From a phage: a DNA stretch of 64,000 bases. The position numbers were made by a program, and so were the translations under genes. The first letter of the stretch is position 1, and every line of letters begins with the position of its first letter. This document shows positions 15,514 through 60,330 of this stretch, piece by piece. The notes under the pieces are model-generated. The model was not told the DNA's origin and made no database searches. It worked only from the letters and a program-made list of their open reading frames with translations. The DNA lies in the sequence record PZ445432.1. The stretch is one strand, 5' to 3'.

Positions 15514-16029
15514 TTGATAACACAAGATGAATTAAAAAGGATTCTGGAGTATAATCCAGATGAAGGAACATTTACTTGGTTAAATAACCAGGAAGTACAC
15601 AATAAAGTAAGGGGACTACCTGCTGGCTGTTTAAAACCCCACTCAGTAGATCCTAACCGAAAAGACTTAGTAATACAAATCAAGGGTAAGAAGTATCCCG
15701 CACAAAATATTGCTTTCCTGTACATGACAGGAAACTTACCTAAAGTTATGGTTGACCATATAGATGGAGATTCACTAAACTATAAGTGGGCTAATCTAAG
15801 AGAAGCAGACTGGCAGTTAAATAGTCAAAATAGAAAAACTAGTAAAAACAATATATTGGGTACTAAGAATATTCGGAAGAAAGGGTCTGGATTTCAAGTT
15901 AGAAAATCCATTAACGGAAAAGAATATGTGAAAACTCTCCCAACTCTAGAAGAGGCGATAGAGTATCGAGATTCTTTAATCCTCTCTATAACCAAAGATC
16001 CAACACTACTTAGAAACACAGATAAATAG
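15514..16029 (+). CDS. HNH homing endonuclease
   Basis: HIDGDSLNYKWANLREA HNH signature; inserted between nrdA and nrdB. Confidence 0.75.
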   Translation: MITQDELKRILEYNPDEGTFTWLNNQEVHNKVRGLPAGCLKPHSVDPNRKDLVIQIKGKKYPAQNIAFLYMTGNLPKVMVDHIDGDSLNYKWANLREADWQLNSQNRKTSKNNILGTKNIRKKGSGFQVRKSINGKEYVKTLPTLEEAIEYRDSLILSITKDPTLLRNTDK

Positions 16030-16037
16030 GAGAACTA

Positions 16038-17183
16038 ATGACAACTTTACTTAACTTAAACTGGGATCATACCAATAAAGATCTATTTCTCGGTGATTCT
16101 CTTGGTATTGCAGATTATGTACGAGTAGCCCATCCAGAGCTGGAAAGGCTGGCGTTATTAGCTCGCTCTCAATTCTGGACTGAAACTGAAATCAGTCTGG
16201 AAGCAGATAAGAAACAATGGCCTAATCTCCCACGAGAAATTCAGGAAATTACCCTCCTGAATTTAGCATGGCAGACTCAAACTGATTCCTTTATCAGTCG
16301 AGCGCCTGAAGCAGCTATTATGCCACTTGTAAGTCGTCCAGAATTGGAAGGTATGCTAAAGCAGTGGAGCTACTTCGAAGACCTGCATAGTCGCGCCTAT
16401 AGCAATATTATTCGTAATGTGCTGACTGATCCAGCAGAATTTATTGATTCTGTAACCAAAAACCAGGAAGCATTCGCACGCATCGCTGATTCTGTTGAAC
16501 TGTTCGATGAACTGTATCAGTTAGGTCAGTATTTCCTCGCAGTACGCGATCATCGTGGTGACAATACATATCCAGAAACTGAGTTCCCTGAAGTTAAACG
16601 TGAAACTCAGGCTAAACTATTAGACGCTTACTTTGCGATCTATGGTCTGGAAGCAATGCAGTTTTACGCATCCTTTGCATGTACTTTTGCTCTAGCAGAG
16701 AACGATATTCTGCAAGGTATTGCTAAGAACCTGCAATTAATCGCTAAAGATGAGGCTCTGCACACCCAGATGTCTAAAGCAATCATCCAGATTATGTTCC
16801 AGCAGTTTGACAAAGATCTGGTAGATGAAGCAGTGGCTAAAGCACCAGCACAGCTCCTGAAAACTCTGAAAACTGAAATTGAATGGGGTCATTTCATTTT
16901 CAAAGGTCGTAGTCTGATTGGCTTGAATGCAGAACTTCTAGAAGAATATCTGTACTTTGTGGGGCGTAATGCATTTATGCACATCGGTGTAGAATGGCCT
17001 AGTCATTTACCAGTAATCACTAAGAACCCCATTCCGTGGATCATGAACTGGCTGGATACCACTTCTTTACAGCCTGCTCCACAAGAAATCCAGATTGGTG
17101 CAGCCTACCGTGTAGGTCAGGTAACTGAGACCTCTACTGATACTCTGAAAGATCTGGGTAATGAATTTGGAGATTTCTTATGA
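16038..17183 (+). CDS. nrdB: ribonucleoside-diphosphate reductase small subunit
   Basis: di-iron/tyrosyl-radical R2 fold motifs; 381 aa. Confidence 0.9.
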   Translation: MTTLLNLNWDHTNKDLFLGDSLGIADYVRVAHPELERLALLARSQFWTETEISLEADKKQWPNLPREIQEITLLNLAWQTQTDSFISRAPEAAIMPLVSRPELEGMLKQWSYFEDLHSRAYSNIIRNVLTDPAEFIDSVTKNQEAFARIADSVELFDELYQLGQYFLAVRDHRGDNTYPETEFPEVKRETQAKLLDAYFAIYGLEAMQFYASFACTFALAENDILQGIAKNLQLIAKDEALHTQMSKAIIQIMFQQFDKDLVDEAVAKAPAQLLKTLKTEIEWGHFIFKGRSLIGLNAELLEEYLYFVGRNAFMHIGVEWPSHLPVITKNPIPWIMNWLDTTSLQPAPQEIQIGAAYRVGQVTETSTDTLKDLGNEFGDFL

Positions 17184-17710
17184 TTACAGCAATGTATGCA
17201 GTTGGGCCGAATGGAGAGTTCGGCCTCCGAGGTAAACTTCCCTGGGGTTCCTTCAAAGAAGAGTTAGATGCTTTCTATTCTCAACTGGACGTGTTGAATC
17301 CAGATAACATCATCATTGGTGCGGGTACTTATTTAGCACTTCCAGAAGTTGTTAGGCAACGTATGATTGGAGAATCCGACCTCTTTATTCGTGCTGACCG
17401 ACCTCTGGCTGATAGCATCAAAGAAACTTACACTGCCATATCAAGGATAGGTGATACACTACCTACTTTCCTAAAAGATCAGCAAACAGTAGTTCTAGGC
17501 GGAGCTAATCTTCTCCTAGAAATGTATCAGCATGGGCATATAGAAAGTGCTTTTGTATCTACAATCTTTAGTGAGCAGAAGCTAGAGGCAGATACATACC
17601 TAGATAGTATGATACTGGATTATAACTATGAATCCACTCGATTAGTCTATGCAGTTGGCGCAAACAGTGATAACAGCCTGCGATTTGTACAGGAATTGGT
17701 TACTTATTAA
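17180..17710 (+). CDS. frd: dihydrofolate reductase
   Basis: MITAMYAVGPNGEFG...LPW DHFR N-terminus; overlaps nrdB stop. Confidence 0.85.
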   Translation: MITAMYAVGPNGEFGLRGKLPWGSFKEELDAFYSQLDVLNPDNIIIGAGTYLALPEVVRQRMIGESDLFIRADRPLADSIKETYTAISRIGDTLPTFLKDQQTVVLGGANLLLEMYQHGHIESAFVSTIFSEQKLEADTYLDSMILDYNYESTRLVYAVGANSDNSLRFVQELVTY

Positions 17711-18549
17711 TGCAACAATACTTAAAAATTTTGACAGATGTAATTTTACTAGGTGAACCCCGTAATGACCGTACAGGAACAGGCACAGTTTCAATTTTTG
17801 ATTCCTATGCTAAGTTCGATCTACGTGAGGGATTCCCTGCCGTAACCACTAAACGTCTAGCCTGGAAATCAGTAGTAGGAGAACTTTTATGGTTCTTGTC
17901 TGGTTCCACAAATCTTCATGATCTACGTGTATTCACATTTGGGCGTGACGAAGGACAGTGGACCATCTGGACTCCAAATTATGAAGACCAAGCTATAAGT
18001 ATGGGGTATGATAAGGGTAATCTAGGACCGGTATATGGTAAACAGTGGCGTAACTTTGGTGGGCGAGATCAGATTCTAGAACTTATTGAAGGACTCAAGA
18101 ATAATCCTCATGGCCGCAGACATCTAGTTTCTGCATGGAACGTAGCTGAACTTGATAAAATGGCATTACCGCCCTGCCACTACGGCTTCCAGTGCTATGT
18201 AAGTAACGATGGATACCTAGATCTTAAATGGACACAACGTTCTGTAGATTGTTTCCTCGGTTTACCCTTCAATATTGCTAGTTATGCTTTATTAACGCAT
18301 ATATTAGCAAAACTGACAGGATTAAAACCTCGTTATCTCATCTTTAGTGGTGGAGATACTCATATCTATAATGACCACATGGAACAGGTAGAAGAACAGG
18401 TAAAACGCAAGCCACGCCCTCTACCAACTCTAGTAATGCCAGAGTTTGTAGATCTTTACGATTTATTAGAAAATAATACGGCAGCTTGGTCCTTCCAGCT
18501 TGAAGGATATGATCCGCATCCGGCTCTTAAAGCTAAAATGTCTTCCTAA
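17710..18549 (+). CDS. thyA: thymidylate synthase
   Basis: RNDRTGTGT, ELLWFL and PPCH active-site region. Confidence 0.9.
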   Translation: MQQYLKILTDVILLGEPRNDRTGTGTVSIFDSYAKFDLREGFPAVTTKRLAWKSVVGELLWFLSGSTNLHDLRVFTFGRDEGQWTIWTPNYEDQAISMGYDKGNLGPVYGKQWRNFGGRDQILELIEGLKNNPHGRRHLVSAWNVAELDKMALPPCHYGFQCYVSNDGYLDLKWTQRSVDCFLGLPFNIASYALLTHILAKLTGLKPRYLIFSGGDTHIYNDHMEQVEEQVKRKPRPLPTLVMPEFVDLYDLLENNTAAWSFQLEGYDPHPALKAKMSS

Positions 18550-18553
18550 CTCA

Positions 18554-18585
18554 AATAGCCCTTCGGGGCTATTATATTTAAATTT
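18554..18585 (+). terminator. rho-independent terminator
   Basis: aatagcccttcggggctatt hairpin with T-rich tail. Confidence 0.55.
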
Positions 18586-18620
18586 CATTTGCTTATTTAG
18601 TGAAATTTAAATATAATATA
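18580..18620 (+). promoter_or_regulatory. conserved early sigma70 promoter
   Basis: catttgctta ...17 bp... tataat. Confidence 0.55.
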
Positions 18621-18642
18621 TTTTATAAATTGGAGGTATATA

Positions 18643-18924
18643 ATGATTTCAGCCAAAGAAGCTCAAGAACTTGCAGGATTAACAGAAGTACCCGCATTCC
18701 TAAAGTTTATAGAAGAAAAGATTGTAGAAGCTGCTAAGTCTGGAAATACAGAAGTAATTATTCGAGATAATCCTTACGCTAGGTGGCTATATAATCCTAG
18801 AGAAATGCCAGGAGCAGCTAAATCGGTACTAAAAACCTTATCGGATAAGGGGTATCACCTCTCACAATACTACCGAGAAGCCGCCTTTGTAGACATGGGT
18901 CTTAAAATTAGTTGGGAGGTATAA
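18643..18924 (+). CDS. hypothetical protein
   Basis: ORF with GGAGG RBS. Confidence 0.5.
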   Translation: MISAKEAQELAGLTEVPAFLKFIEEKIVEAAKSGNTEVIIRDNPYARWLYNPREMPGAAKSVLKTLSDKGYHLSQYYREAAFVDMGLKISWEV

Positions 18925-19400
18925 TGTCGGTTTTCCACATTTACACAGATGGTGCTTGTAAGTCTAACCCAGGTCCAGGTGCTTGGGGTTTTATTGTCTA
19001 TAATGATAACGACGATCGTTTAGGTTCTAAATCTGGTTATAATCCTAAAACTACAAATAATGAGATGGAACTCACAGCTATTGTAGAAGCTCTACGTTGG
19101 TCTGTTAAAAAAGATAATAGACCAATTGCTATCTATACTGATTCTGCTTATTGCAAAAATGGCATGGAAAGTTGGATGTTTTCTTGGCAAAGGAAAGGCT
19201 GGAAGAAAGCAGATGGTGAAGTTCCCCTTAATCTAGAACTTTGGCAGGAAGCATTTAAATTAACACAGCAGTATATCAACTTTCATAATATTAACCCTAC
19301 TTTTATTAAGGTTAAAGGACATTCTGGTATTAGTGGTAATGAAGCTGTAGACGCCTTATGTAACACAGTTATTACTGAGCAAGAACTTGCCGAGATGTGA
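18912..19400 (+). CDS. rnhA: ribonuclease HI
   Basis: YTDGAC, TDS and HSG...NE.D catalytic motifs. Confidence 0.85.
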   Translation: MGGIMSVFHIYTDGACKSNPGPGAWGFIVYNDNDDRLGSKSGYNPKTTNNEMELTAIVEALRWSVKKDNRPIAIYTDSAYCKNGMESWMFSWQRKGWKKADGEVPLNLELWQEAFKLTQQYINFHNINPTFIKVKGHSGISGNEAVDALCNTVITEQELAEM

Positions 19401-19409
19401 TAAGTAAAT

Positions 19410-19452
19410 TAAAAATTCAATTGCTTAAAGCCCTCTAATTTAGTATAATATT
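19410..19452 (+). promoter_or_regulatory. conserved early sigma70 promoter
   Basis: aaaaattcaattgcttaaag...tagtataat. Confidence 0.55.
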
Positions 19453-19476
19453 CGTATTGAAAGTGAGGAGGGCTTT

Positions 19477-19761
19477 ATGAGAATTTATAACTCAAATTCA
19501 TTAGGATTTAAACCATTGAGAAAACGTGCACAATCACCTCGTCAAATAAGAAAGGCTAATATTGGTGAACCAGAAACACGTCTTCCACCTCCTCCAGAAC
19601 AACGTTTAGTTTATCTGGACGAAGAATTAGCGGAACGCGAAAGAAAAGCTCAAGAAGAGATTAAGCATAAGAAAATGTGTACTGCTCCAGCCTACTCCAA
19701 AGGGGCTTATCAATATATCTATACAGCCGAGGAGGCTAAAGATGCGGGGCGTAAAAAATGA
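19477..19761 (+). CDS. hypothetical protein
   Basis: ORF from track. Confidence 0.5.
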   Translation: MRIYNSNSLGFKPLRKRAQSPRQIRKANIGEPETRLPPPPEQRLVYLDEELAERERKAQEEIKHKKMCTAPAYSKGAYQYIYTAEEAKDAGRKK

Positions 19762-20207
19762 AGATTACTGAATTTAAAGGTACTTATAGTTTTTTATCTA
19801 ACTTTTATTTATCACCAATTACTTTCGAATATCTAAATGAGATATGGCATGCTGATACTGTAGAACATGCTTTTCAGGCTATGAAATCCGACCAAAAAGA
19901 TGATGTAGCTCATGTGCTGCGCTCCCTAAATGCAGGAGTTGCCAAACGTAGAGGACGTAAATTAACTCTGCGCTCTGACTGGGATAAGGTAAAAGATGAT
20001 GTAATGTTAGAGCTTTTACGGTTAAAGTTTGCAATCCCTGATTTGAGGGACAAACTGTTAGCAACAAAAAATGCAACTTTGATCGAAGGAAATACCTGGG
20101 GAGATACATACTGGGGTGTTTGCCGAGGCATCGGGGATAATACTTTAGGAGTTCTTTTGATGCAGGTAAGGTCTGAAATTAAAAGAAGTTTACAGTTAAT
20201 AAATTAA
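19758..20207 (+). CDS. NADAR/YbiA-like (DUF1768) domain protein
   Basis: GTYSFLSNFY ... HAFQAMK ... GDTYWG pattern typical of the YbiA/NADAR family. Confidence 0.6.
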   Translation: MKITEFKGTYSFLSNFYLSPITFEYLNEIWHADTVEHAFQAMKSDQKDDVAHVLRSLNAGVAKRRGRKLTLRSDWDKVKDDVMLELLRLKFAIPDLRDKLLATKNATLIEGNTWGDTYWGVCRGIGDNTLGVLLMQVRSEIKRSLQLIN

Positions 20208-20246
20208 AAATTCATTTGCTAAACGCTTCAAATTCTAGTATAATAT
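20205..20246 (+). promoter_or_regulatory. conserved early sigma70 promoter
   Basis: aaaaattcatttgctaaacg...tagtataat. Confidence 0.55.
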
Positions 20247-20282
20247 ACTTCATAAATTGATAAACAAAAAGGAAAATAAATA

Positions 20283-20798
20283 ATGGCTAAGCAGAAAAAC
20301 GCAAAAACTCAAGCAGCAACTACAGTTAAAACTTTCCCTCAGACTGAGGCTAACCGCAAAGCTCGTCTGGAACGCCACCTGCGCAAGCATCCTACTGATG
20401 CTCAAGCTGCACAGGCACTGAATCGTCCGGCTCCGATTCGTCAAAAGCCGAAGGCTAAGAATGCTACTCGTTCTGTAACCCGCCTTGTGACCTATGTACA
20501 GGGTTATGGCCACAAATCTGTTCCAGTAACACTGAGTTTCAATGCTGGAGCTGAATTGTTCCCTCGTAATGGCATGGCCATGAAAGATTACGAGAAAGCA
20601 GTTAACCAGAAACGCAAGCCAACGGCAGATGTGCTTCGTGACACTCATGGACAGTTTGGCTCTGTTAAGCCAAATATCTTTGGCGTAGAGTATAGTAAAG
20701 ATAGTGTTCGTGCTCTGTGTTACGGTGTAGGCATTAAGTTCACTGGTGATTCTGCTCGTAAATCTGCTAAACCAGCTCGTAAACGTAAAGCGAAGTAA
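20283..20798 (+). CDS. hypothetical basic protein
   Basis: good RBS; plus strand consistent with operon; antisense ORF 20250-20825 rejected. Confidence 0.55.
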   Translation: MAKQKNAKTQAATTVKTFPQTEANRKARLERHLRKHPTDAQAAQALNRPAPIRQKPKAKNATRSVTRLVTYVQGYGHKSVPVTLSFNAGAELFPRNGMAMKDYEKAVNQKRKPTADVLRDTHGQFGSVKPNIFGVEYSKDSVRALCYGVGIKFTGDSARKSAKPARKRKAK

Positions 20799-20806
20799 TA
20801 GATAGG

Positions 20807-20830
20807 AGGGGCGAAAGCCCCTCATATTTT
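20807..20830 (+). terminator. hairpin terminator/attenuator
   Basis: aggggcgaaagcccct followed by catatttt. Confidence 0.45.
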
Positions 20831-20839
20831 GGAGAAACT

Positions 20840-21076
20840 ATGCGTAATTTTGTAGTAAAGAATGATTTTAACCGTGCTAGCACCCATAAGTCCGCTAGAG
20901 ATTATACACGACTTTCTAGTCATGAGGTAATGGATACCTGTTATGAAGAGCTGGAAGATAACTGGAATGAATGGCCAGACTTTTCTATGGAAGAAAACTG
21001 GGATGTTAGTGAAGATATGCTTCCTGGTTTTAAAGACCCCAAGAAGTGGGAGTCTATTAAAGAGACAGCTCTTTAA
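20840..21076 (+). CDS. hypothetical acidic protein
   Basis: ORF from track with GGAG RBS. Confidence 0.5.
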   Translation: MRNFVVKNDFNRASTHKSARDYTRLSSHEVMDTCYEELEDNWNEWPDFSMEENWDVSEDMLPGFKDPKKWESIKETAL

Positions 21077-21104
21077 TAGTTTTCTACACAATAAAGGATA
21101 AGTT

Positions 21105-21806
21105 ATGAAAGTAAAACCATTTGGTATGCTAGATATTGAATCTCTAGGAACTCCGGGGGATTGTGGTACTACTCATATCGCAATGCCTTCTTTCGCTTTT
21201 GTGGCTATGCATGGGATTGATAAAGACCCTGACTTAGTATTTGCTACTTTGGATGTGCAGGATCAGCTTAATTCTGGTGCCAAAGTTACAGCATCTACTC
21301 TAGCATTCTGGATGGATCAAGCTAAAAATAGCCCGTCTGCTATTCACATTATGGAAGCTATGAAGGAACGTAATCCAAAACTGATTGCCTTCCAAAATGG
21401 TAAACATCATTGCACTACTAAATTAGGCTCAAACTATGCTGCCTTCTCTATGGCTCAAAATATTATGGAGTTGGCTCTAGGCGAAAATGCTTTGTATTAT
21501 GGCAATGGCCCAGAGTTTGATATGACTATCTACTCTGCAAACACGTTCCATGCTGGAACCAATGAAGAGGTAGTTCCGTGGAAATTCTGGAATTTAGGCA
21601 ATGTTCGATCTCTTCGTAATCTCTGGATGCAAGCGGGTTATAGTTACAAAGATCTAGAGGCTGAAGGTATTAGCTGGGCAAAAGCTAAAATGGAGAAGAT
21701 GGACACCATTCGTTATGGGATCTATCCGGTTAAGCACGACCCAGCATTCGATGCCCTAGTTGAGGGCTATTGTGTTGCAGCTATGATCGAAAAAATGAAA
21801 ATTTGA
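21105..21806 (+). CDS. hypothetical protein (possible DEDD-type exonuclease, weak)
   Basis: N-terminal LDIESLG resembles exonuclease motif I; weak. Confidence 0.45.
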   Translation: MKVKPFGMLDIESLGTPGDCGTTHIAMPSFAFVAMHGIDKDPDLVFATLDVQDQLNSGAKVTASTLAFWMDQAKNSPSAIHIMEAMKERNPKLIAFQNGKHHCTTKLGSNYAAFSMAQNIMELALGENALYYGNGPEFDMTIYSANTFHAGTNEEVVPWKFWNLGNVRSLRNLWMQAGYSYKDLEAEGISWAKAKMEKMDTIRYGIYPVKHDPAFDALVEGYCVAAMIEKMKI

Positions 21807-21840
21807 TTTGCTTCCGGCTCCAAAATTCTGTATAATATAT
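21798..21840 (+). promoter_or_regulatory. conserved early sigma70 promoter
   Basis: atttgatttgcttccgg...ctgtataat. Confidence 0.55.
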
Positions 21841-21877
21841 TTATAAATTTGAGAAAACAATAAAAGGAAAAACAAAT

Positions 21878-22060
21878 ATGCCAGTATCTAAAAATGTTCG
21901 TAAAAATGGTAAGAAAGCTACTCGTAATCTGGGTATCCGTCGTATGGCCGAACGTCAATCAGGTGTCCAGAAAATCTTTGATCTGTTAAATCGTGCTAAT
22001 CCTAAAATTGATAACAGTAATGATACTGTTCTGCGCACTCTGCTGGCAATTGGTCTGTAA
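21878..22060 (+). CDS. hypothetical basic protein
   Basis: ORF from track. Confidence 0.45.
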   Translation: MPVSKNVRKNGKKATRNLGIRRMAERQSGVQKIFDLLNRANPKIDNSNDTVLRTLLAIGL

Positions 22061-22113
22061 TAGATCAAATTTAAACAAATTCAAATCTCAAACTTCATAT
22101 AAGGAAGCAAATA

Positions 22114-22752
22114 ATGACTACTCGTATTTCTAAAACTCGCGCTCTGGCAACTATCAAATCTCTGGAAGCTAAAATCCGTAAAGCTGCTGAACAGCAGGTT
22201 CTGATCGCTGTTGGTGAAGGTAAGGATAAAAATAAGGTTGTAGTTGGCGCTGCAATCGAAGTAGACGATCTGTCCGCCCGTATTAAGGCAGATTTCCAAT
22301 CTCTCCTGGATATGATGTCCCAGCGTGATCGTATCAAAGCTGCTCTGATTAAGAGCAATGCGGAAACAATCGTTGAGATTGGCTCTCGTAAGATGACTGT
22401 TGCGGAAGCAATTGAAGCTAAGCGTTCTATGGAACTTAAAGCCCAACTGCTGGCTAACATGCGTAAGCAGTTCCAAGCCGCTACGGCTAAGTTTAATACG
22501 CAGAAAGCACAGTTTGATGCTAAATATGAGCGTTTGCAGGATAGCATGGCTACCCGCGATAAGAAAACTTCCGAAGATGAAGTTAAAATGCAGCTCAACC
22601 TGCTGGAACTCAAGAATACTCCATTCTTGATTGATCCGCTGGAACTGGAGAAGCTGATTAAGCAGCATGACGAGGAATACCAGGACTTTGCAACAAATGT
22701 TGACTTTGTTCTGTCCGAGTCTAACGCCTCTACCTTCATTGAAGTAGAGTAA
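22114..22752 (+). CDS. hypothetical coiled-coil protein
   Basis: AAGGAAG RBS before the ATG; antisense ORFs rejected. Confidence 0.55.
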   Translation: MTTRISKTRALATIKSLEAKIRKAAEQQVLIAVGEGKDKNKVVVGAAIEVDDLSARIKADFQSLLDMMSQRDRIKAALIKSNAETIVEIGSRKMTVAEAIEAKRSMELKAQLLANMRKQFQAATAKFNTQKAQFDAKYERLQDSMATRDKKTSEDEVKMQLNLLELKNTPFLIDPLELEKLIKQHDEEYQDFATNVDFVLSESNASTFIEVE

Positions 22753-23124
22753 TAATTTAAAAGCTAGTAAATCGGTAGACGAAAGCCCAAGCATCTTACC
22801 TCGCAGCAGCGGTTGAAATACGAGGTTAAATAAGACCGCTGACCATACTATAAAGTATAATCTATTGGAGATTATGTTTATTACATCAGACATTTAATCT
22901 GACACGTAAAAACAAAGCGTCGTTGATATTACCGACACAACTTCAAAGATCAACATTTAAGTATGAAAGCTGAAAAGTTTAAAGAACTCAAACTTCTAAA
23001 CTTCTAAAGCTAAAAGATGCAAAGTATTCGTTGATGATTCAAACCCTAGATCAAAGGTACATGGCTCATAAGATATGGCCTGTGGCGCCTCTAGGCTGTT
23101 TATCGGTTTACTAGTTTCACAATT

Positions 23125-23166
23125 TAAAAATGTATTTGCTAATTTATTAAGTTATCTGTATAATAT
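23125..23166 (+). promoter_or_regulatory. conserved early sigma70 promoter
   Basis: aaaaatgtatttgctaattt...ctgtataat. Confidence 0.55.
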
Positions 23167-23194
23167 ATTTTTAAATTGATGAAACGAGGCTATT

Positions 23195-24016
23195 ATGGGT
23201 AAATTACAAAAACAAATACTACCATATATAGATTATATCCGAGAAATTATAGAGTATAATCCCTATACTGGTAAATTATTCTATAAGCCTAATAAATATA
23301 AGAATAAAACTTGGCATACTTTATATGCTGGGAGAGAAATATGTAGTAAGAACTCTGATGGGTACATCAGAGTTAGTTTGCTCTTAGATAATAAACCCAC
23401 AATTATTTATGGACACCGAATAGCGTGGCTCCTTCACTATGGGGAGGAACCACCTGCTATGATTGATCATATAAATACTATACCGTGGGATAATAGAATT
23501 ATTAACCTAAGAGAGACAAATTTTAAGTTAAACAGACTTAATACTAACAAAACGGTAGGTGTAGAGCTGCTGCCAGAAGGATTTGTGTACAGCATTACAT
23601 TAGGTGAAAAGTTTTTTGTATCCCCCGGCTTCCCCACTTTCGAACAAGCTAAAGTGGAAAGAGAAAAACTAGTAAATGGTTTATGTAATGCAGAAATTGG
23701 GAAGCAGACCAATATTCTAATAGACGATGTTAGAGATTTACCTGAAATGTCCATTATTTGTCGTACAGTTATAGGTGCGCTGGAACTATCAGATGTGTTT
23801 AGTTTCACAGGATCCTATTTATTTATGGACTCAGATTTAGGAGATTCAGAGGTACAAGGAAAAGATTTATTAGATCATATACTATTATTAGGTCAAAGAC
23901 CCCTAAAAGTGATTCTAGTAACATCTAATCCTGTTGACGCAGAGTACATGAGAGGTACTCTTACGTCTTATGGATACCGAGAAAATCCCAATAGATTAGA
24001 ATATGATCTATTTTAA
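23195..24016 (+). CDS. HNH homing endonuclease-like protein
   Basis: IDHINTIPWDNRIINLRE HNH signature; N-terminus paralogous to the other HNH ORFs. Confidence 0.65.
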   Translation: MGKLQKQILPYIDYIREIIEYNPYTGKLFYKPNKYKNKTWHTLYAGREICSKNSDGYIRVSLLLDNKPTIIYGHRIAWLLHYGEEPPAMIDHINTIPWDNRIINLRETNFKLNRLNTNKTVGVELLPEGFVYSITLGEKFFVSPGFPTFEQAKVEREKLVNGLCNAEIGKQTNILIDDVRDLPEMSIICRTVIGALELSDVFSFTGSYLFMDSDLGDSEVQGKDLLDHILLLGQRPLKVILVTSNPVDAEYMRGTLTSYGYRENPNRLEYDLF

Positions 24017-52068: not shown

Positions 52069-52070
52069 TT

Positions 52071-52259: not shown

Positions 52260-52299
52260 TCTCCTAGTTAGTGGGGCGAAAGTAGCGCCCCGTTATTAC

Positions 52300-52530: not shown

Positions 52531-52648
52531 TATAAGCCTCCAAAATTTTTTGGGAAATTTTCAACCGTCCTCAAACGGTGTAAGGGCATTATAACAAAAA
52601 GGCCGCCATAATCGGCGACCTTTACAAAACTTTACATTAGATTATTTA

Positions 52649-53641
52649 TTACTCGTTTTCGGTGTTAGTGGTAAAAGTAGAAATATCGATACCTTTTACC
52701 ATTTCATCAATCATCTCAGCGATGTTAAAACTTTGCACCATTTCCAACATTGCCGCTTCCATAGCCGCTCCTGCTACCGCTTTCGCTTTCTGGTTATTCG
52801 GGGCGTACTGGTCAACCGCTACACTCAGCAGGTTAGCGATCACTACTCGACCGATCGGCGTATCAATATAGCCTTTAATCATAAATGGCGCTTTTTTAGC
52901 CGCTACTTTCGTGATTTGAGTTAGTGCAATTTTACCCGCTTCCAGTTTTGCAGCATTTACAACAGCGGATTTATTAGCGGCAACGATGTTAGCGATCTTA
53001 GTCATGGTATTTTTTCCTTTGTTTTCAGTGGTTTGAGTGTTAACGCTTTGAGTGTTAGAATTTACAGCATGTTTTTCTATATTGTCAATAGGCTGATCTT
53101 CATCTTTCCAGAAAGAAAAGCCCGCGCTTTCTATATCCCCATCGTATACGTATGGGTATACTTCCGACGGTAGCAAAAAATTGCCATCATCATCAAAGGC
53201 CATTACAGCCGCCAGACGATACCCGTCACCGATTGACCGATTCCAGCCAACTGATAAATAACGCCAAAATGAATCAAGAAAGTTTTCAACGTCATAAAGA
53301 TCCTTATCATAAGGCTCATAATTTTCTATTGAAAAAACTTCTAAGCCCGCCCCAGCATCATAGGCTTTTACTGTGCTACCTTTTACGATTATGAAATCAG
53401 TGTCCGGCCCCCTACTAGTAAGCAGGTGATTATCCCTATTATATAAGATAATAGTTGCCCCTTGCTTATATAATGGTAGAAAACTACTCATATCATAGGC
53501 GTCGAAATCATCAAAAAAATTCTGGTGAATATCTTCGGCCTTGTTAACAAAGTGCTTAATGCTGGTTGTTCTGCTACCGTCCAGCAGGTTGCGCAGCGCA
53601 CCTTTTAAGACGGTTGCGTTATCTGGTTTATATAGCCTCAT
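52649..53641 (-). CDS. hypothetical protein (330 aa)
   Basis: ORF from track; largest gene in the inverted-repeat-bracketed block. Confidence 0.55.
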   Translation of the reverse strand: MRLYKPDNATVLKGALRNLLDGSRTTSIKHFVNKAEDIHQNFFDDFDAYDMSSFLPLYKQGATIILYNRDNHLLTSRGPDTDFIIVKGSTVKAYDAGAGLEVFSIENYEPYDKDLYDVENFLDSFWRYLSVGWNRSIGDGYRLAAVMAFDDDGNFLLPSEVYPYVYDGDIESAGFSFWKDEDQPIDNIEKHAVNSNTQSVNTQTTENKGKNTMTKIANIVAANKSAVVNAAKLEAGKIALTQITKVAAKKAPFMIKGYIDTPIGRVVIANLLSVAVDQYAPNNQKAKAVAGAAMEAAMLEMVQSFNIAEMIDEMVKGIDISTFTTNTENE

Positions 53642-53907
53642 TTGTTGGCCTCCCTCGTTAATCGGTGAGTGAATGATAAAGGCAATTTTCTAGCATAGGC
53701 AAATATTATTTTACCTTTTTATTTTCCTTGCCTAGCGCCTAGTTTTATGCTAACCGCGCAGCGGTACAGTAAAGAGCAAAACACGGTGAAGCCACCAGGC
53801 CGACGCGTTGAGGCTTTACTTTAATATTACCCCACTGCGTTTAGCTCGTTAGAAAGCGATTTAGGCCGCTTAAAATTGATTGCAGTTGTTAACACTACCT
53901 TTTTACC

Positions 53908-54015
53908 CTGTATATTTATACAGTAGGATAACCTGTGGATAAGTCTGTGGATAAGCCCTTATATCGCCGCCTATTGTGTCAAATCATTTTGTGCTGTGAT
54001 TAAGTCTGTGGATAA
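53908..54015. repeat. right inverted module with three DnaA-box 9-mers on the opposite strand and palindrome ctgtatatttatacag
   Basis: tgtggataa at 53934, 53946 and 54007; palindrome at 53908-53923; reverse complement matches the left module. Confidence 0.7.
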
Positions 54016-54039
54016 CTTAAATGATAGTTTTTCTCACTT

Positions 54040-54420
54040 AGGCCGATAGTTTCTTATAGTGATTATTTTTATAGTGATTATTTTTATAGTTATTATTTCT
54101 CATTAATTTATATGTATATTATATAATATGAAATAGTTAGTTGGCTAATGAGATTTTACGGGATTAGTAGTCTGCTAATGGTTCAGGCTGTTACAATCCA
54201 CCAGCACGATTATCATTCTAGTAATTATTAGTCTGCTATCTTTCTAATACACAACAACAAATAAAAGTCAATTAATTAATTTTATAAAATAACTCATTTA
54301 GTCTTGATTTTTAAAAGTCAATACCTTTTACAACTATTTTTCAATTTTGCTTTTATTAAATATTTGTTAAGTCGAAAATAAGCCGCCTAAAACGCCCTAG
54401 AAAGCGGTAAAATTTTCAGG
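54040..54420. repeat. AT-rich region with short direct repeats (ttatagtgattattttta copies; agtctgctaa copies)
   Basis: read directly; adjacent to the DnaA-box module. Confidence 0.55.
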
Positions 54421-54765
54421 TATCCCATCATAAGGGGATAGCCCGTTTATCGTCACCTGATGGATTCTAGAAAAATCAAGTAGGGCAAGGCAAATATAAG
54501 TGAAAAAATTACTTGCCTATCTGCTATGTTTTGTGGTATCCGCGCGCCCGTTTCCTTTAAACTTGGGCAATCGCCGGACACCTTGCTTTCTTTACATTTC
54601 TTTACAAAAATAAGGTTGCGCCATTTTTGGTATTTGCTATTATTTACCTCGTAGGGCGGCAATGACGAACTACACGGCGGGAAGTTTACCGCCGCGCTCT
54701 TTAAAAATTGGGTATATCTTAAAGTCTATCGGCGGCAAACTTATACATTATAAGGAATCGCAGAT

Positions 54766-54969
54766 ATGAAACAAACTTTATTGATCACTGGCAAGCCAGC
54801 TAAAAAACTGGATGGCAATACTAGAAAGCTGTTGACAGTAGCGCAAAGATCAGTAAAATATCGATTTAAGCAGTACAAGAAAGGCCGCCAGCAAGGTCTA
54901 GAAATGATCTGGCGAAATATTATGATCGACCTAAAGGAAAATCATAAAAAACTGCAAAAAATTGTTTGA
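54766..54969 (+). CDS. hypothetical basic protein
   Basis: AAGGA RBS. Confidence 0.45.
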   Translation: MKQTLLITGKPAKKLDGNTRKLLTVAQRSVKYRFKQYKKGRQQGLEMIWRNIMIDLKENHKKLQKIV

Positions 54970-55134
54970 CAACCTAGCCGATAGGCTTTAAGATGTACCC
55001 AGTTCGATAAGAGCGATAACTTGATACAATTTGACGGCCGGTACTTGCCATAATGTGCCCCGCCCCCTAACTGGGATATAGCGGCCCGCGTGGAGTTCTT
55101 TAAATTGATTATATTGGCAAGCGGATTTTTTCTT

Positions 55135-55160
55135 ATTACCTGCTAGAAAGTAGCAGGTAA
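55135..55160. promoter_or_regulatory. palindromic operator-like site ttacctgctagaaagtagcaggtaa
   Basis: perfect 11-bp arms around a 4-bp centre, ~40 bp upstream of ORF 55198. Confidence 0.4.
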
Positions 55161-55197
55161 TGCGGAACAATCCACTAAATAAACTGGAGTTTATACT

Positions 55198-55449
55198 ATG
55201 CAAAACATTACTAATGCGCCGAAAGTTGGTCAATCCGTTTTTATCCCTTTCGTTACTAAAACGGACGAGGCAACCGGAAAGGCCGAACGCATCAAAGGCG
55301 CGGCGCTTATGCCGTTTGATGTGATTGATGCGGTATACGCTGAAACGGAACAGAGTAACAACGGGAAAACCGTTTTTAGCGTTCGCGTTAAATCCGGCGA
55401 CGTTGTAAAGGTTGCCCAGCGTAACGAAAAATGGGAAGCTGTAGCGTAA
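55198..55449 (+). CDS. hypothetical protein
   Basis: GGAG RBS. Confidence 0.5.
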   Translation: MQNITNAPKVGQSVFIPFVTKTDEATGKAERIKGAALMPFDVIDAVYAETEQSNNGKTVFSVRVKSGDVVKVAQRNEKWEAVA

Positions 55450-55552
55450 TATAGTGTTAACTTTATATTCCCCCAGTAGTTCGGGGGGAATATAACGATT
55501 AACATTATGTTAATCATTTAATCCCTTAAATTAAATCGATAGGAGCTATATC

Positions 55553-55969
55553 ATGACTAACGTTAAAGCCGAAAAATCCGCAAAATTTGCTTGGAATGAA
55601 GAAAACACCCAGCAGGCGGTTACTATGTATCAGCAGTTAATTAATGAAAACGGATTAGATTTTGCAAATAGCGACGGTTTAAAAGAGATTGCGAAAGCAG
55701 TTGGCGCGGCTTCTCCCGTGTCCGTTCGGTCAAAATTGACCAGCGCGAAAGCCTATCAAAAAAGCGATAAGCCGCGCAAAGTTGGCGGCGGCAGTTCAAT
55801 CCGCAAAGCGCATTACGTGCGCGTTATTGCAAAACATGCCATCGATTCCGGCATTATCAAGGACGCCGATGATCTGGCATCACTGGAAAGCGCAAAATTA
55901 GAAACGTTGGACGTCGTGGCGCAGATGTTAGGCGTTGCCGATGAAGTAAAACAAGCCGCAGGCGAATAA
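55553..55969 (+). CDS. hypothetical protein
   Basis: ORF from track. Confidence 0.5.
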   Translation: MTNVKAEKSAKFAWNEENTQQAVTMYQQLINENGLDFANSDGLKEIAKAVGAASPVSVRSKLTSAKAYQKSDKPRKVGGGSSIRKAHYVRVIAKHAIDSGIIKDADDLASLESAKLETLDVVAQMLGVADEVKQAAGE

Positions 55970-56058
55970 TAGTTATATCTTGCCCCTTCTAGCGAGGGGG
56001 CAATAATATAACTGTTTAGCGATAGTTATTTTCTTCCCCTAAATCAGGAGTTTTAAAA

Positions 56059-56256
56059 ATGATCTTTTACCCTACTGAATCGCTCATTCTAGGATTATTT
56101 ATTATGGCGGCCTCATTATTGTTTGCTTATTTCCAAAATGATCTGGATTCGTATTATTTTAAGCGCAAAGCTAAATTAGCAAAGCGGTTGGGCTTACTTT
56201 GCTTAATTGCCGCCGTTGCTTGTGGTGTTAGTTCTAGCCTGATGCCGATTAGTTAA
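56059..56256 (+). CDS. small membrane protein
   Basis: two hydrophobic helices. Confidence 0.4.
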   Translation: MIFYPTESLILGLFIMAASLLFAYFQNDLDSYYFKRKAKLAKRLGLLCLIAAVACGVSSSLMPIS

Positions 56257-56353
56257 ATATCGCAAGTTATAACGCCTATTATTTAAGGCGTTATATCTGG
56301 CAATATTGCCAATAACAAACGTTTTTTAATCCCTTTAATGGAGTTTTATTATT

Positions 56354-58024
56354 ATGGTTATTTCCGCAGAAAAACAAACCCAGATCCTCAACCTTGCCGC
56401 TGATTTCAATTTCTATGGTAAACGTCTGCGCGCTACTAAGCTGGAAGTTTGTGACGATATTTCAAAAGCTGTTTATGATACGCCGAAACATTCCACCGCT
56501 ATTTGTGACTGGTTGGAAGCAAATAAACCAGCGAAACCGAAAGCGGCGAAAGTAGCAAAAGCCATAAAAAACGATGACCGCCCTGAAGCCGCTGGAGTTA
56601 TTTCTAGCACGGTGGAGCAATGGGAAGTAAAACAAGGCAAACGCTTTATCATTACATCGATTCAGAATAATACTTTCCCGCATAAAAACTTTTTGGCCGC
56701 GCTTGAACAATATGCCCAATTTATTGGAGCTGATTTGCTGGTTAGCAAGTATATTTATAATAAAAACGGTTTTCAAAATGGGGAAGGGGCAGACGGAATC
56801 AAATATGATTCTGCATTTGACAAATATATTTGCAGCAAAAACGTGTTTTTAAATAACCGCCGCTTTGCTTTCATGGCTGAAATTAATGTTTTGCCAACCG
56901 CAGATTATCCGCTATCTGGATTTGCTGAAACTGCAACCGCGCTTAATCTGGAAGGTCTGGCAATTGGTCACGCTAAAATCACCGCCGAAAGCGTGCCAGC
57001 TTTAAAAGGTGAAGTAGTGCGCCGCATGTATTCAACCGGAACGGCAACGCTAAAAAATTACATTCAGCAGAAGGCAGGGCAAAAAGCGGAAGCGTTACAT
57101 AATTTTGGTGCGCTGATTGTCGAGTTCGACGAGGACGGAGAATTTTTTGTTCGCCAGCTTGAAACGATGGACGAAAGCGGCGTTTTTTACGATTTGAATA
57201 TTTGCGCCACTCCCACCGGATGCTATGAAACAACGGGGCACGTTTTAGGTTTACAGTATGGTGACATCCACGCTGAAAAATTAGATGAAGAGTGCGCCGC
57301 TGCATCATGGGGGCATGGTGATACCTATGGGCTTGTGGATATTCTCAAACCAAAATATCAATTCGTCCATGACGTGCATGATTTTACATCACGCAACCAT
57401 CACAACCGCGCCTCCGGTGTATTCCTAGCAAAACAGTACGCCGCCGGACGTGATAAGGTTCTGGATGATCTTATCGATACGGGGCGCGTACTGGAAGCAA
57501 TGGAGCGTGATTTCTCTCAAACAATCATTGTTGAATCGAATCACGATCTGGCGTTATCCCGCTGGCTTGATGATCGTAATGCTAACATTAAAGACGACCC
57601 AGCAAACGCGGAACTATATCACCGCCTGAATGCCGCGATTTACGGAGCTATCGCAGAAAAAGACGAAACCTTCAACGTGCTTGATTATGCGTTGCGCAAG
57701 GTTGCAGGTTGCGAGTTTAACGCCATTTTCCTAACGACTGACCAATCTTTCAAGATTGCAGGCATTGAATGCGGCGTACACGGTCACAATGGCATTAACG
57801 GGAGTCGTGGCAATCCTAAACAGTTTAAGAAATTGGGCAAATTAAACACGGGGCATACTCATACGGCAAGCATTTACGGCGGTGTATATACCGCTGGCGT
57901 TGCTGGTAGTCTGGACATGGGTTACAACGTTGGCGCGTCAAGCTGGACGCAAACGCATATTATTACCTATGTAAACGGTCAGCGCACTTTGATTGACTTT
58001 AAGAATGGTAAATTTTTCGCATAA
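56354..58024 (+). CDS. A1: pre-early protein A1-like (metallophosphatase-like motifs)
   Basis: 556 aa as recalled for T5 A1; GDIHAE and GHNG...GHTHTA motifs; synteny with A2-like and dmp-like genes. Confidence 0.7.
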   Translation: MVISAEKQTQILNLAADFNFYGKRLRATKLEVCDDISKAVYDTPKHSTAICDWLEANKPAKPKAAKVAKAIKNDDRPEAAGVISSTVEQWEVKQGKRFIITSIQNNTFPHKNFLAALEQYAQFIGADLLVSKYIYNKNGFQNGEGADGIKYDSAFDKYICSKNVFLNNRRFAFMAEINVLPTADYPLSGFAETATALNLEGLAIGHAKITAESVPALKGEVVRRMYSTGTATLKNYIQQKAGQKAEALHNFGALIVEFDEDGEFFVRQLETMDESGVFYDLNICATPTGCYETTGHVLGLQYGDIHAEKLDEECAAASWGHGDTYGLVDILKPKYQFVHDVHDFTSRNHHNRASGVFLAKQYAAGRDKVLDDLIDTGRVLEAMERDFSQTIIVESNHDLALSRWLDDRNANIKDDPANAELYHRLNAAIYGAIAEKDETFNVLDYALRKVAGCEFNAIFLTTDQSFKIAGIECGVHGHNGINGSRGNPKQFKKLGKLNTGHTHTASIYGGVYTAGVAGSLDMGYNVGASSWTQTHIITYVNGQRTLIDFKNGKFFA

Positions 58025-58079
58025 TTAAATTATTCCCTAGCGGCTTGAAATATAGCCGCTATTACAGGAGCCACAAAAA

Positions 58080-58370
58080 ATGAAAATTAATTTACCTAGC
58101 AATGAATTTTCCCCTAAAACTTCTTTACTAGATGATATTTCTTATCAAGATGCTTATATAAATGAGGAAGTATATCGCGCTTGTTCTGACCTCCTAGAAT
58201 ATCCCGATTATCCAATCTATAAAGGTGATTTCATTATACCCGTTTATAATGGTGTGCTAGTAGTAGGCAAAGCTGGGGTTATTGTTATAGATAGTTGTAC
58301 ATTGTCACAAGAAACGTTTAAAGTGCCACTAGAGTTAACTAATTATTCTCCTAGTATTACAGTACAATAA
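58080..58370 (+). CDS. hypothetical protein
   Basis: ORF from track. Confidence 0.45.
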   Translation: MKINLPSNEFSPKTSLLDDISYQDAYINEEVYRACSDLLEYPDYPIYKGDFIIPVYNGVLVVGKAGVIVIDSCTLSQETFKVPLELTNYSPSITVQ

Positions 58371-58407
58371 ATTAAGTCCCTTATTAAACTAATTGGAGTT
58401 TATAAAT

Positions 58408-58800
58408 ATGAAAAAGCAAAATATCCCATTCGATCGCGCTCAGTCTTCTATCGTTCTGGTTTATTCTAATGGTGCGCGGTATCACGTCGAGGCCGGTCAC
58501 GTTGTCGATGACTTAATCGAGTTTAATGACGTTTTGCAGGTTACTACTTTCGCCTATACCACGGGCAAGCTATCCAGCCGCATCAAGGCGAAAGGCGTTC
58601 ACATTGACACGATGAAACAAGAAACCATCATTATTGACGCGGTAAAATCCGGCCTAGCCTTTGCAGTTGTCGCGCCTTGCCCCGCTTGCCTTGATGATCA
58701 GCTAATGAGCGCAAAAGTATTTACTTGTGCGGGGATTCGTTCCGATGTATCAGGTGAAGATATTAGTTTTATCGCTGATGCGCTGGCTTATGGTCTTTGA
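58408..58800 (+). CDS. A2: pre-early protein A2-like
   Basis: ~130 aa between A1 and dmp; start at ATG after GGAG RBS. Confidence 0.5.
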   Translation: MKKQNIPFDRAQSSIVLVYSNGARYHVEAGHVVDDLIEFNDVLQVTTFAYTTGKLSSRIKAKGVHIDTMKQETIIIDAVKSGLAFAVVAPCPACLDDQLMSAKVFTCAGIRSDVSGEDISFIADALAYGL

Positions 58801-58880
58801 TAGTTGATTTATTATTGCCCGCTGATAAATAGCGGGCAATGCTGGATAAACTAAATCCCTTTAATGGAGAACGTAACAAA

Positions 58881-59615
58881 ATGAATCAAGTTAAAACGAA
58901 TATTACCCGTAATTTCCCGCATGTTTCCCGCGTCATGATCTGGGATCTGGATGGCACTATCGTTAACTCATTCCATCGCGTAGCGCCTTGCTTTGATAGT
59001 GATGGTAATCTAGATCTGAATAAGTATAAAAATGAAGCGTGCAAACATGATTTAATAATGCAAGATACTTTATTGCCGCTTGTTACATATATGCGCCAAT
59101 GCATGAATGACGCAAATACTTTAAACATTATTTGTACCGCTCGACTGATGAGCAAGTCGGACTATTATTATTTGCGCAAACAAGGCTTGCGAGGGCGTGG
59201 GAATAGCAATATCCGTGTATTTTCCCGCGATACACTGCATAAGTATTTTGAAGCTGATAAAGTTAGCGAAATATACCACAGTAAGGACGCAGTTTATAAA
59301 AGCCACTACTTTGAGTTATTTAAGCAGTTATATCCGAACGCTGATTTCACGATGATAGACGATCATAAAGGTGTGCTAGCAGCGGCGGCATCATACGGAT
59401 TTAAAACGTTGGACGCGCAAGCCGTTAACGATATTCTATCAATCGGTGTTACATTGATAGGCGAAACCTTTATCGACGAATCTCTTGAGGATGATAATGA
59501 TTATCAGTTCCTAGTCGATCGCTTGCAATTATGTTGGGAAAGTATGACCGAGGAAGAACGCGCAGAATATAGTTGCAGCCCGCAACAATATATCGAGAAA
59601 CTAAAAGTTGCATAG
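58881..59615 (+). CDS. dmp: 5'-deoxyribonucleotidase (HAD family)
   Basis: MIWDLDGTIVNS HAD motif I; 244 aa from the internal ATG with GGAG RBS. Confidence 0.7.
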   Translation: MNQVKTNITRNFPHVSRVMIWDLDGTIVNSFHRVAPCFDSDGNLDLNKYKNEACKHDLIMQDTLLPLVTYMRQCMNDANTLNIICTARLMSKSDYYYLRKQGLRGRGNSNIRVFSRDTLHKYFEADKVSEIYHSKDAVYKSHYFELFKQLYPNADFTMIDDHKGVLAAAASYGFKTLDAQAVNDILSIGVTLIGETFIDESLEDDNDYQFLVDRLQLCWESMTEEERAEYSCSPQQYIEKLKVA

Positions 59616-59630
59616 TAATTAAAGTTGATA

Positions 59631-59670
59631 TTGTTTCACCTTGCAATTAAAATGGTTGCAAGGTGAAACA
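59631..59670. terminator. 15-bp perfect inverted repeat hairpin between convergent genes
   Basis: tgtttcaccttgcaa ...10 nt... ttgcaaggtgaaaca; no T-tract. Confidence 0.45.
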
Positions 59671-59790
59671 GTTAGCATGATAATAGTAACGGGGGTGGCG
59701 GTTAGCAGACTAAGTATTTTCGCCCAGCCCACTGCACCCACCCACGCGTACGTAATCCAAAGAATTTGGCAAAAGTCATTTTAGCGCTAA

Positions 59791-60330
59791 TTACCTGTTT
59801 AATTGGGCAACGTCTGGTATACTTCCTTTGAACATCTCCTGTATTGCAAAGTCACCATGAAATGTCCTTCTTAGTAAATTTGCATAATTTACGGCATCTT
59901 CTAATTCGCTATAGGGAAAGTACTTAGTAGTGCCCCTTATCAGCCCCTGTTTATCGTGTAATCTTACCATCCACTTCTGAAGTTCTTTATGCCATGTAAC
60001 ATTTAGATAGCCTGATGATGCTCTTGAGATTCTGCCATTATGATTATTCTCTGTAATTGAAGCCTCTCTTAAATTTGACCATCTATTATTTAGTTTATTC
60101 CTATCTATGTGGTCTACACATTCCTCTGGCCATCTATTCTCCATAATAACAAAAGCTACTTGATGTGCATAAGCTTTAAACCCTCGATACTTGAGCTGCC
60201 TATATCCCCTATTTAAAGTACCTGCTTCTTTACCCTTACGATTGCCGCTTTTCCAGGTAAAAACTCCAGTTTCGGGGTCATAAGCAAATACTTCTTGTAT
60301 TTCCTGTATATTTAGATTATTCTTCACCAT
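59791..60330 (-). CDS. HNH homing endonuclease
   Basis: VDHIDRNKLNNRWSNLRE HNH signature; N-terminus paralogous to the other HNH ORFs. Confidence 0.7.
   Translation of the reverse strand: MVKNNLNIQEIQEVFAYDPETGVFTWKSGNRKGKEAGTLNRGYRQLKYRGFKAYAHQVAFVIMENRWPEECVDHIDRNKLNNRWSNLREASITENNHNGRISRASSGYLNVTWHKELQKWMVRLHDKQGLIRGTTKYFPYSELEDAVNYANLLRRTFHGDFAIQEMFKGSIPDVAQLNR

Follow-up and report, generated by a model that had tools for sequence, protein, structure and literature searches.

A 64,000-nucleotide stretch of phage DNA (sequence record PZ445432.1, hereafter the window) carries four open reading frames (ORF1–ORF4) that, judged by their sequences, are real homing endonuclease genes of the I-HmuI type of HNH enzymes. 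Megablast of window positions 12900–24100 returned a 100% match to Escherichia phage HildyBeyeler (Bas33; MZ501074.1/NC_105119.1), a member of the Demerecviridae, genus Tequintavirus. ORF1 (15514–16029, plus strand) encodes 171 amino acids from a TTG start and is the ortholog of T5 hegH (P-TflVIII); ORF2 (23195–24016, plus strand, 273 amino acids) combines an I-HmuI-like HNH segment with a cREC_REC domain fused in frame; ORF3 (43711–44247, plus strand, 178 amino acids) and ORF4 (59791–60330, minus strand, 179 amino acids) are, like ORF1, homing endonuclease genes of the HNH_3 family. These coordinates and strands agree exactly with those given in a preliminary description of the window. We consider it highly probable, on the sequence evidence presented below, that all four are selfish genes of the I-HmuI type which spread by homing in mixed infection.

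The assignment to one family was supported by several searches. In a profile search set beforehand as a check for a shared domain, all four proteins scored above the gathering cut-off of Pfam HNH_3 (PF13392, 24.8 bits), with 31.9 bits for ORF1, 42.4 for ORF2, 54.4 for ORF3 (the strongest match of the four, E = 1e-14) and 45.2 for ORF4. All of them also matched PHROG 99 ‘HNH endonuclease’ (E = 2e-45, 7e-34, 3e-61, and 9e-52 for ORF1 to ORF4, respectively). As independent queries, the heg proteins of T5, Salten, bastian, and SHSML-45 were compared with the 549 ORFs of at least 40 amino acids in the window; where these queries matched at all, ORF1–4 alone were matched. Pairwise BLASTP among the four gave E values from 1e-7 to 3e-35 and identities up to about 40%, with ORF3 and ORF4 being 40% identical over their full length and ORF2 being the outlier. 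The catalytic motif D-H-[IV]-[DN]-x8-12-N-L-R-E-x5-7-N-x-x-N was present in each ORF, its residues D, H, N, L, R, E, N, and N being invariant, and it aligned with VVDHKDGNKDNNLSTNLRWVTQKINVEN in the catalytic core of I-HmuI. The putative catalytic histidines are H82, H92, H73, and H74 in ORF1 to ORF4, respectively. I-HmuI (PDB 1U3E) was also the sole solved structure matched by a profile of the four proteins (E = 2.5e-4). A match to AP2 was seen in ORF3 only and was weak (E = 0.012, below the cut-off). In GenBank, ORF1 and ORF4 are labelled ‘putative homing endonuclease’, ORF2 ‘intein-containing hypothetical protein’, and ORF3 ‘hypothetical protein’.

Parts of the preliminary description had to be narrowed. 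The N-terminal consensus it had proposed for the four proteins fits fully in ORF3; ORF1 reads PDEGTF and ORF2 PYTGKL in this block, and in ORF4 two positions are occupied by V and A. Of the HNH signatures, the quoted IDH is VDH in ORF1 and ORF4, and the quoted DNR is NYK in ORF1 and NNR in ORF4. The term paralogous holds only in a loose sense: the genes are mutually related, but each of them is much closer to genes at the same site in other phages than to its relatives within the genome.

The distribution of the genes was examined in 50,697 phage records, with each gene and its short flanks as a query; the flanks were found in about 440–460 T5-like records. ORF1 was present in 75 of the 439 records having its flanks, ORF2 in 27 of 448, ORF3 in 62 of 461, and ORF4 in 14 of 447 (about a dozen further records stop within the query). 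Each gene therefore occurs in a minority of records, and identical insertions in all relatives were not seen. Empty sites could be defined to the base in T5, Salten, IrisVonRoten, and VSe12. Of the four sites, IrisVonRoten (Bas32) has only site 3 occupied. At two of the sites other phages carry non-orthologous HNH genes: in phage bastian one of 170 amino acids lies 80 bp upstream of the cREC gene, and in phiLLS, phA11, falkor, and AKFV33 such genes lie beside nrdB (see also PMC3326045). By these comparisons, close relatives differ mainly in which sites hold HNH_3 genes. This is in line with the literature, where T5-like genomes are described as varying mainly in their homing endonuclease genes (PMC10644984; PMC8594841; PMC12639943). 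The BASEL paper calls such genes a nuisance for alignment owing to gene conversion (PMC8594841), and HildyBeyeler and Salten, its closest known relative, have been noted to differ in the homing endonuclease genes they contain (PMC12639943). The nearest relatives were also observed to hold their own, differing HNH_3 sets elsewhere, namely beside thioredoxin, close to llp, and, inside the terminal repeat, between A1 and dmp; such genes are located at 18137–18664, 24128–24625, and 38576–39058 in one relative (L010), at 10660–11199 in Salten (L011), and at 878–1387 in SHSML-45 (L013).

The clearest picture emerged at ORF1, which lies between nrdA (12974 or 13019 to 15412) upstream and nrdB (16038–17183) downstream. 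The preliminary description had named this interval a classic homing site, which agrees with its published standing as a homing endonuclease hot spot (PMC3326045). It had also seen ORF1 as splitting nrdA from nrdB; the position is indeed intergenic, but no coding sequence is split, and the gene sits in the 5′ leader of nrdB, between the −10 box and the ribosome-binding site. In Salten and IrisVonRoten, both without ORF1, the spacer consists of the nrdA terminator (15420–15441 in the window), the early promoter of nrdB (15459–15487, plus strand; TTGCTA-17-TATAAT, TG-extended) and, 31 nucleotides on, the ATG of nrdB; terminator and promoter are thus kept in genomes with and without the gene. Relative to the latter, the insert proper spans 15490–16012 (523 bp). 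It begins 2 nucleotides past the −10 box and brings a new ribosome-binding site for nrdB. As the insertion directly follows the −10 box, ORF1 would be read from the nrdB promoter; its Shine-Dalgarno sequence is located at 15501–15506 (AAGGAG-N7-TTG).

The insert is part of a larger recombinant patch (15404–16175, ~770 bp), a putative co-conversion tract that is T5-like within a Salten-identical backbone. Compared with Salten, the window showed 3 mismatches in 14900–15403 (nrdA) and none in 16176–16700 (nrdB), whereas the patch differed at 15404–15409, by the insert itself, and at 32 positions in 16043–16175. Compared with T5, identity was 98–100% inside the patch, and mismatches were dense before 15403 and after 16223, with identities of 73–91% over the last 400 bp of nrdA and about 90–95% beyond 16223. 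ORF1 itself was 98.8% identical to T5 hegH in amino acids and 98.7% in nucleotides; its codons differed by 5 synonymous changes and 1 nonsynonymous change from T5, and by 14 and 1, respectively, from phiAPCEc03.

The right part of the patch covers the 5′ end of nrdB (16038–16175, plus strand), whose first ~46 codons (~140 bp) form a haplotype linked to ORF1. Codons 1–60 of nrdB differed from Salten by 22 synonymous and 2 nonsynonymous changes, while the remaining 321 codons (61–381) differed by 5 and 0; compared with alleles without the gene in general, codons 1–60 showed 22–25 synonymous and 2 nonsynonymous differences. T5 has the same version of this 5′ end as the window, and IrisVonRoten the same as Salten. 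Across the 439 records, a 133-nucleotide stretch of nrdB was bimodal, with 71 records at an identity of at least 95%, 7 at 90–95%, and 361 at 90% or less. The count of the haplotype (71–78) agrees with that of the gene-bearing records (75), and the gene was present in phiAPCEc03, a record at 100% that was spot-checked. The patch looks like the footprint of homing co-conversion. Its limits, together with the haplotype linkage, place the predicted target of ORF1 at the start of nrdB, probably in its first ~140 bp, in genomes without the gene, and the linked synonymous changes in nrdB are predicted to protect HildyBeyeler from cutting by ORF1. Since the patch is nearly free of differences from T5, the comparison implies that the transfer was very recent.

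Cassettes resembling this patch were also found at sites 2 and 3. ORF3 is not a plain insertion, as it displaces T5.031, a 165-bp ORF for a 54-amino acid membrane protein that is carried by T5 and Salten; window positions 43700–44252 stand in place of 190 bp of T5 (15816–16005) and likewise of Salten. ORF3 shares bases with both neighbors: its start codon with the stop of the DUF7179 gene upstream (ATGCTAA), and its stop codon with the start of the gene that follows (ATGA). The exchanged cassette (43457–44282) comprises ORF3 and most of the DUF7179 gene (43421–43717): only 3 mismatches to Salten were counted from 43000 to ~43456, mismatches were clustered from there to ~44282, and they were scattered beyond. 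The cassette is diverged from the gene-free T5 and Salten; its near-identical counterpart is in IrisVonRoten, which carries the gene and is close to the window from ~43385 to ~44273 and less so outside. The product of ORF3 (bas33_0154) shares 60.6% amino acid identity with T5 hegE (F-TflV), and the orthologs in other phages carry the label HNH homing endonuclease.

At site 2, ORF2 has taken a place inside a coding gene. T5 (T5.084), VSe12, Salten, and IrisVonRoten hold here a 318-bp gene (105 amino acids) whose product matches Pfam cREC_REC. The promoter (23136–23164), ribosome-binding site (23184–23189), and ATG of this gene, all on the plus strand, are used by ORF2, and the HNH segment enters in frame after codon 2, as seen against VSe12, T5, and Salten, to yield a protein of 273 amino acids. 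The latter consists of Met-Gly, ~169 amino acids that align end to end with free-standing endonucleases, and a diverged receiver domain. On the plus strand, the I-HmuI-like HNH part corresponds to about residues 1–171 (23195–23707) and the cREC_REC part, the product of the invaded gene (T5.084 homolog), to residues 172–273 (23708–24013), the receiver domain retaining about 48% amino acid identity over 99 aligned residues. The whole cassette, HNH segment plus diverged cREC allele, spans 23198–24075, with its left edge directly after the shared ATG. Upstream, a single mismatch to Salten was found in 498 nucleotides (22700–23197); DNA similarity to Salten is gone from 23198 to ~23966, and near-identity returns after ~24075, with 100% at 24100–24199 and four further mismatches at 24262–24289. 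The preliminary description had grouped ORF2 with the other HNH genes, which is right as to the endonuclease; it is not free-standing, being fused to the gene it invaded.

An AlphaFold2 model of ORF2 (mean predicted local distance difference test score, pLDDT, 88) showed an HNH module at residues ~11–167, a short linker of low confidence, and an alpha/beta domain at 173–273. In a Foldseek search with the model, I-HmuI (1U3E) was the top match, over its whole length (E = 2.7e-4, 170 columns), with a template modeling (TM) score of only 0.45. The sole in-frame ATG close enough to serve as an internal start for a separate cREC protein (residue 185) has no Shine-Dalgarno sequence and would delete the conserved ILIDD strand; ORF2 may be expressed solely as the HNH::REC chimera. 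The fusion was intact in SHSML-45 and JLBYU43, where the ratio of nonsynonymous to synonymous substitution rates (dN/dS) of the HNH part relative to the window was 0.04–0.07; between SHSML-45 and JLBYU43 it was 0.34, a value derived from only 14 differences. A T5-like contig from a metagenome, in which the neighboring genes are the same, likewise has it intact, although the 2.7-kb region was only 67% identical. Between this contig and ORF2, the proportion of synonymous differences (pS) was 0.69–0.75, i.e., saturated, and that of nonsynonymous differences (pN) 0.13 in both halves, with junction and catalytic motif kept. These values indicate that both halves are under purifying selection and that the fusion did not arise by a recent accident. 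A HMMER scan of 1.84 billion representative proteins returned 19,992 relatives of the HNH part and a single full-length cluster with HNH plus cREC; matches to the receiver half were otherwise stand-alone proteins of 105–107 amino acids.

ORF4 is the last gene of a minus-strand operon of T5.159–162 homologs, preceded by a Shine-Dalgarno sequence (GGAGG) 5 nucleotides before its ATG, and adjoins dmp (58881–59615). In T5 and Salten the T5.162 homolog runs directly into the dmp side. The insert in HildyBeyeler (59725–60332, 608 bp) takes up the position of ~15 bp in T5, among them the annotated start of the right terminal repeat (RTR), and is flanked by the two copies (59741–59787 and 60333–60379) of an imperfect direct repeat of ~47–50 bp with a perfect 16-bp core, AATTTGGCAAAAGTCA. 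In T5, the annotated repeat starts at position 111532, and its base 15 corresponds to window position 59724; given the colinearity of the two genomes, the boundary of the HildyBeyeler terminal repeat is predicted at ~59738, 52 bp from the ORF4 stop codon, so that ORF4 would lie outside it. Several genomes in GenBank end at window positions 59725–59766. The location next to dmp, as noted in the preliminary description, is confirmed, and the putative terminal-repeat edge noted there is supported by homology to T5. SHSML-45 was 97–100% identical to the window within ORF4 and 85–95% in the flanks. A packaging-associated HNH function of ORF4 was rejected, because only about 14–30 of the 447 relatives carry the gene and T5 is without it.

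Homing would account for this set of observations as follows. In a co-infection with a T5-like phage without the gene, each enzyme would nick or cut the empty allele near the insertion site, ORF1 probably doing so in the initial ~140 bp of nrdB. The endonuclease gene and a short flanking tract would then be copied from the donor by recombinational repair, and the gene-bearing genome would be protected by the sequence differences in that tract. The four genes would have arrived separately by horizontal transfer, not arisen by duplication within HildyBeyeler, each with its own way of settling in: ORF1 would ride on the nrdB promoter, ORF2 would have taken over the start codon of the receiver-domain gene and be made as an HNH::REC fusion protein, ORF3 would be translationally coupled inside an early operon after displacing a small gene, and ORF4 would occupy the junction of unique region and terminal repeat. 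This scenario starts from features observed in the four genes, i.e., domain, catalytic motif, presence/absence polymorphism, recombinant patches, flanking-haplotype linkage, and purifying selection. Nuclease activity, the question of nick or double-strand break, the exact target sites, and super-Mendelian inheritance we infer from the sequences and the population footprints.

Several points weigh against this scenario. The recombinant patches prove the exchange of cassettes, not its initiation by the encoded nuclease, and at site 4 the genome comparison revealed no clear flanking co-conversion tract. The only characterized T5 endonucleases, F-TflI, II, and IV (hegC, hegD, and hegA, respectively), have no significant BLASTP similarity to ORF1–4, and in the literature we found no biochemistry or genetics of ORF1–4, hegE, hegF, hegH, or their orthologs. 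Moreover, the ORF2 fusion appears to have been inherited vertically over deep divergence (flanks at 67%), which is unexpected for a purely selfish, cycling element.

The latter observation bears on the possibility that the genes are kept mainly because they benefit the phage, by excluding co-infecting relatives, dampening host defence, or making the nicks of T5 DNA, with mobility as a side effect. The stable inheritance of the fusion would fit such a role, as would the purifying selection on all four genes and the specific nicks recorded in the T5 annotation, which are common to T5 and BF23 (PMC10644984). A preprint further reports that bas24_0090, an I-HmuI-like HNH protein of a BASEL phage, and T7 gp3.8 attenuate GAPS4 defence and mediate inter-phage competition (10.1101/2025.09.07.674715). 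Nevertheless, each gene is absent from most T5-like phages and cannot supply a conserved function, and sharp cassettes with haplotype linkage are what homing predicts. A benefit to the phage would not compete with homing as an explanation but could go along with it, and it is not needed to explain the data; we regard it as unlikely to be the main reason for the presence of the genes, while secondary benefits are plausible. The suggestion that one of ORF1–4 makes the T5 nicks is unsupported, given their patchy distribution.

It seems hardly probable that the four, or some of them, are relics of earlier invasions, already inactive but still to accumulate disabling mutations. Decay is the expected fate of a homing endonuclease gene once it is fixed, and the HNH_3 score of ORF1 was the weakest of the four (31.9 bits); however, reading frames and catalytic motifs are intact in all of them, nonsynonymous/synonymous ratios are low, and the near-identity of the site 1 patch to T5 implies a very recent transfer.

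The GenBank label of ORF2 (bas33_0076) as an intein comprising residues 3–171, which would splice out to leave a receiver-domain protein of ~104 amino acids, is very improbable and was discarded: the gene, of 105 amino acids in relatives, does take up the HNH segment in frame behind its codon 2, and Thr172 behind the annotated segment is a permitted +1 nucleophile, but no Hint or intein Pfam match was obtained at E ≤ 0.1, the annotated ends are Lys3 and Gln171 instead of the required Cys/Ser/Thr and His-Asn, so that only the +1 residue fits, the 169 residues align fully with ORF1, ORF3, ORF4, and I-HmuI and leave no room for a splicing domain, and the model consists of an I-HmuI-like part joined by a linker to a REC fold, for which the fold searches returned I-HmuI and receiver domains, with Hint proteins absent among the 50–60 best matches listed by either search. 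By alignment and model, ORF2 joins an I-HmuI-like endonuclease in frame to a receiver-like gene and is not an intein. Whether the fusion is more than an accident of insertion, be it a domesticated or regulated nuclease with REC controlling or targeting HNH, or a form of intein-free residence in a coding gene, is a doubtful matter, and we put forward either idea only tentatively. Intein-free residence, if true, would mean that a homing endonuclease can live within a coding gene without destroying it.

Concerning the origin of the window, local alignment to MZ501074.1 gave three colinear blocks: window 1–28618 corresponds to record positions 43049–71666, 28598–43911 to 76686–92000, and 43912–63518 to 92001–111607, and the last 482 bases (63519–64000) are identical to record bases 1–482 (terminase small subunit). 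The window is the HildyBeyeler genome crossing the arbitrary start of a record in which the terminal repeat is present once. The tRNA-gene region is shorter in the window than in MZ501074.1 by about 5,020 bp (record positions 71667–76685). The junction (window 28598–28618) is a 21-bp stretch containing GGGTTCGAATCCCA, of a tRNA T-arm, and is common to tRNA-Leu(TTA) and a downstream tRNA-like element; the loss therefore looks like a deletion via tRNA-repeat recombination, or else reflects another assembly of the same phage. It is reminiscent of the classical T5 deletion mutants. Two further kinds of repeats were observed. Window positions 50095–50222, inside the predicted terminal-repeat part, contain two copies of ~70 bp with an offset of 58 bp and 93% identity, which may be part of the injection-stop-signal region, described in T5 as rich in repeats. 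Segments of ~60–85 bp upstream of early genes (43362–43451 and 23111–23190) match many T5 loci with 73–83% identity; they are repeated T5 early promoter/leader regions, which could be recombination substrates.

A fifth gene of the window, bas33_0147 (40403–40780, plus strand; start at 40464 in GenBank), is labelled ‘putative homing endonuclease’ as well. It encodes an acidic protein of 105–125 amino acids whose sole matches were DUF7167 and PHROG 6798 (unknown function), with no nuclease domain among them, and the label looks unsupported. The annotation may be corrected accordingly in three places, with ORF3 as an HNH endonuclease, bas33_0076 as a protein that is not an intein, and bas33_0147 as one without a detected nuclease domain.

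The finding of four homing endonuclease genes is correct, but such genes are already known in T5-like phages, where they are an abundant and well-documented cause of mosaicism, and three of the four described here were already flagged in GenBank. The nrdB patch is a natural and very clean footprint of homing-type conversion in the recent past and predicts where the target of hegH/P-TflVIII is located. The HNH::receiver fusion, which is under long-term selection, is the only feature with some potential for novelty; it may represent domestication of an endonuclease or intein-free residence in a gene.

Compared with known systems, the four genes stand closest to those of T5, for which about nine homing endonucleases were predicted, including P-TflVIII between nrdA and nrdB, described as analogous to T4 mobE (PMC3326045); the T5 annotation lists hegA–hegH. 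ORF1 is the ortholog of hegH (T5.095) at the same site, and ORF3 is related to hegE (T5.051), with the same HNH_3 family and a similar size of about 165–180 amino acids. T5 differs in lacking the insertions of ORF2–4, having instead T5.084 alone, T5.031, and a direct T5.162/RTR junction, while homologs of its hegA, hegC, and hegD were not found among the 549 window ORFs. With I-HmuI, an HNH nicking homing endonuclease of Bacillus phage SPO1 (1U3E), ORF1–4 have the DH…N…N motif in common; I-HmuI is, however, encoded by a group I intron, whereas ORF1–4 have no intron, ORF2 being fused and the others free-standing. Identity is only about 19%, and nicking rather than double-strand cutting by ORF1–4 would be an extrapolation. 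Intein-encoded HNH endonucleases resemble ORF2 in being inserted in frame into a protein-coding gene, but ORF2 has neither a Hint domain nor canonical junctions, and its product is predicted to stay a two-domain fusion. T4 MobE, a free-standing HNH endonuclease of T-even phages, shares with ORF1 the niche between the class Ia ribonucleotide reductase subunit genes nrdA and nrdB; the two are likened by this genomic niche, and their phage families differ (Straboviridae and Demerecviridae, respectively). The target of MobE was reported to lie in nrdB, and the predicted target of ORF1 would likewise be in nrdB.

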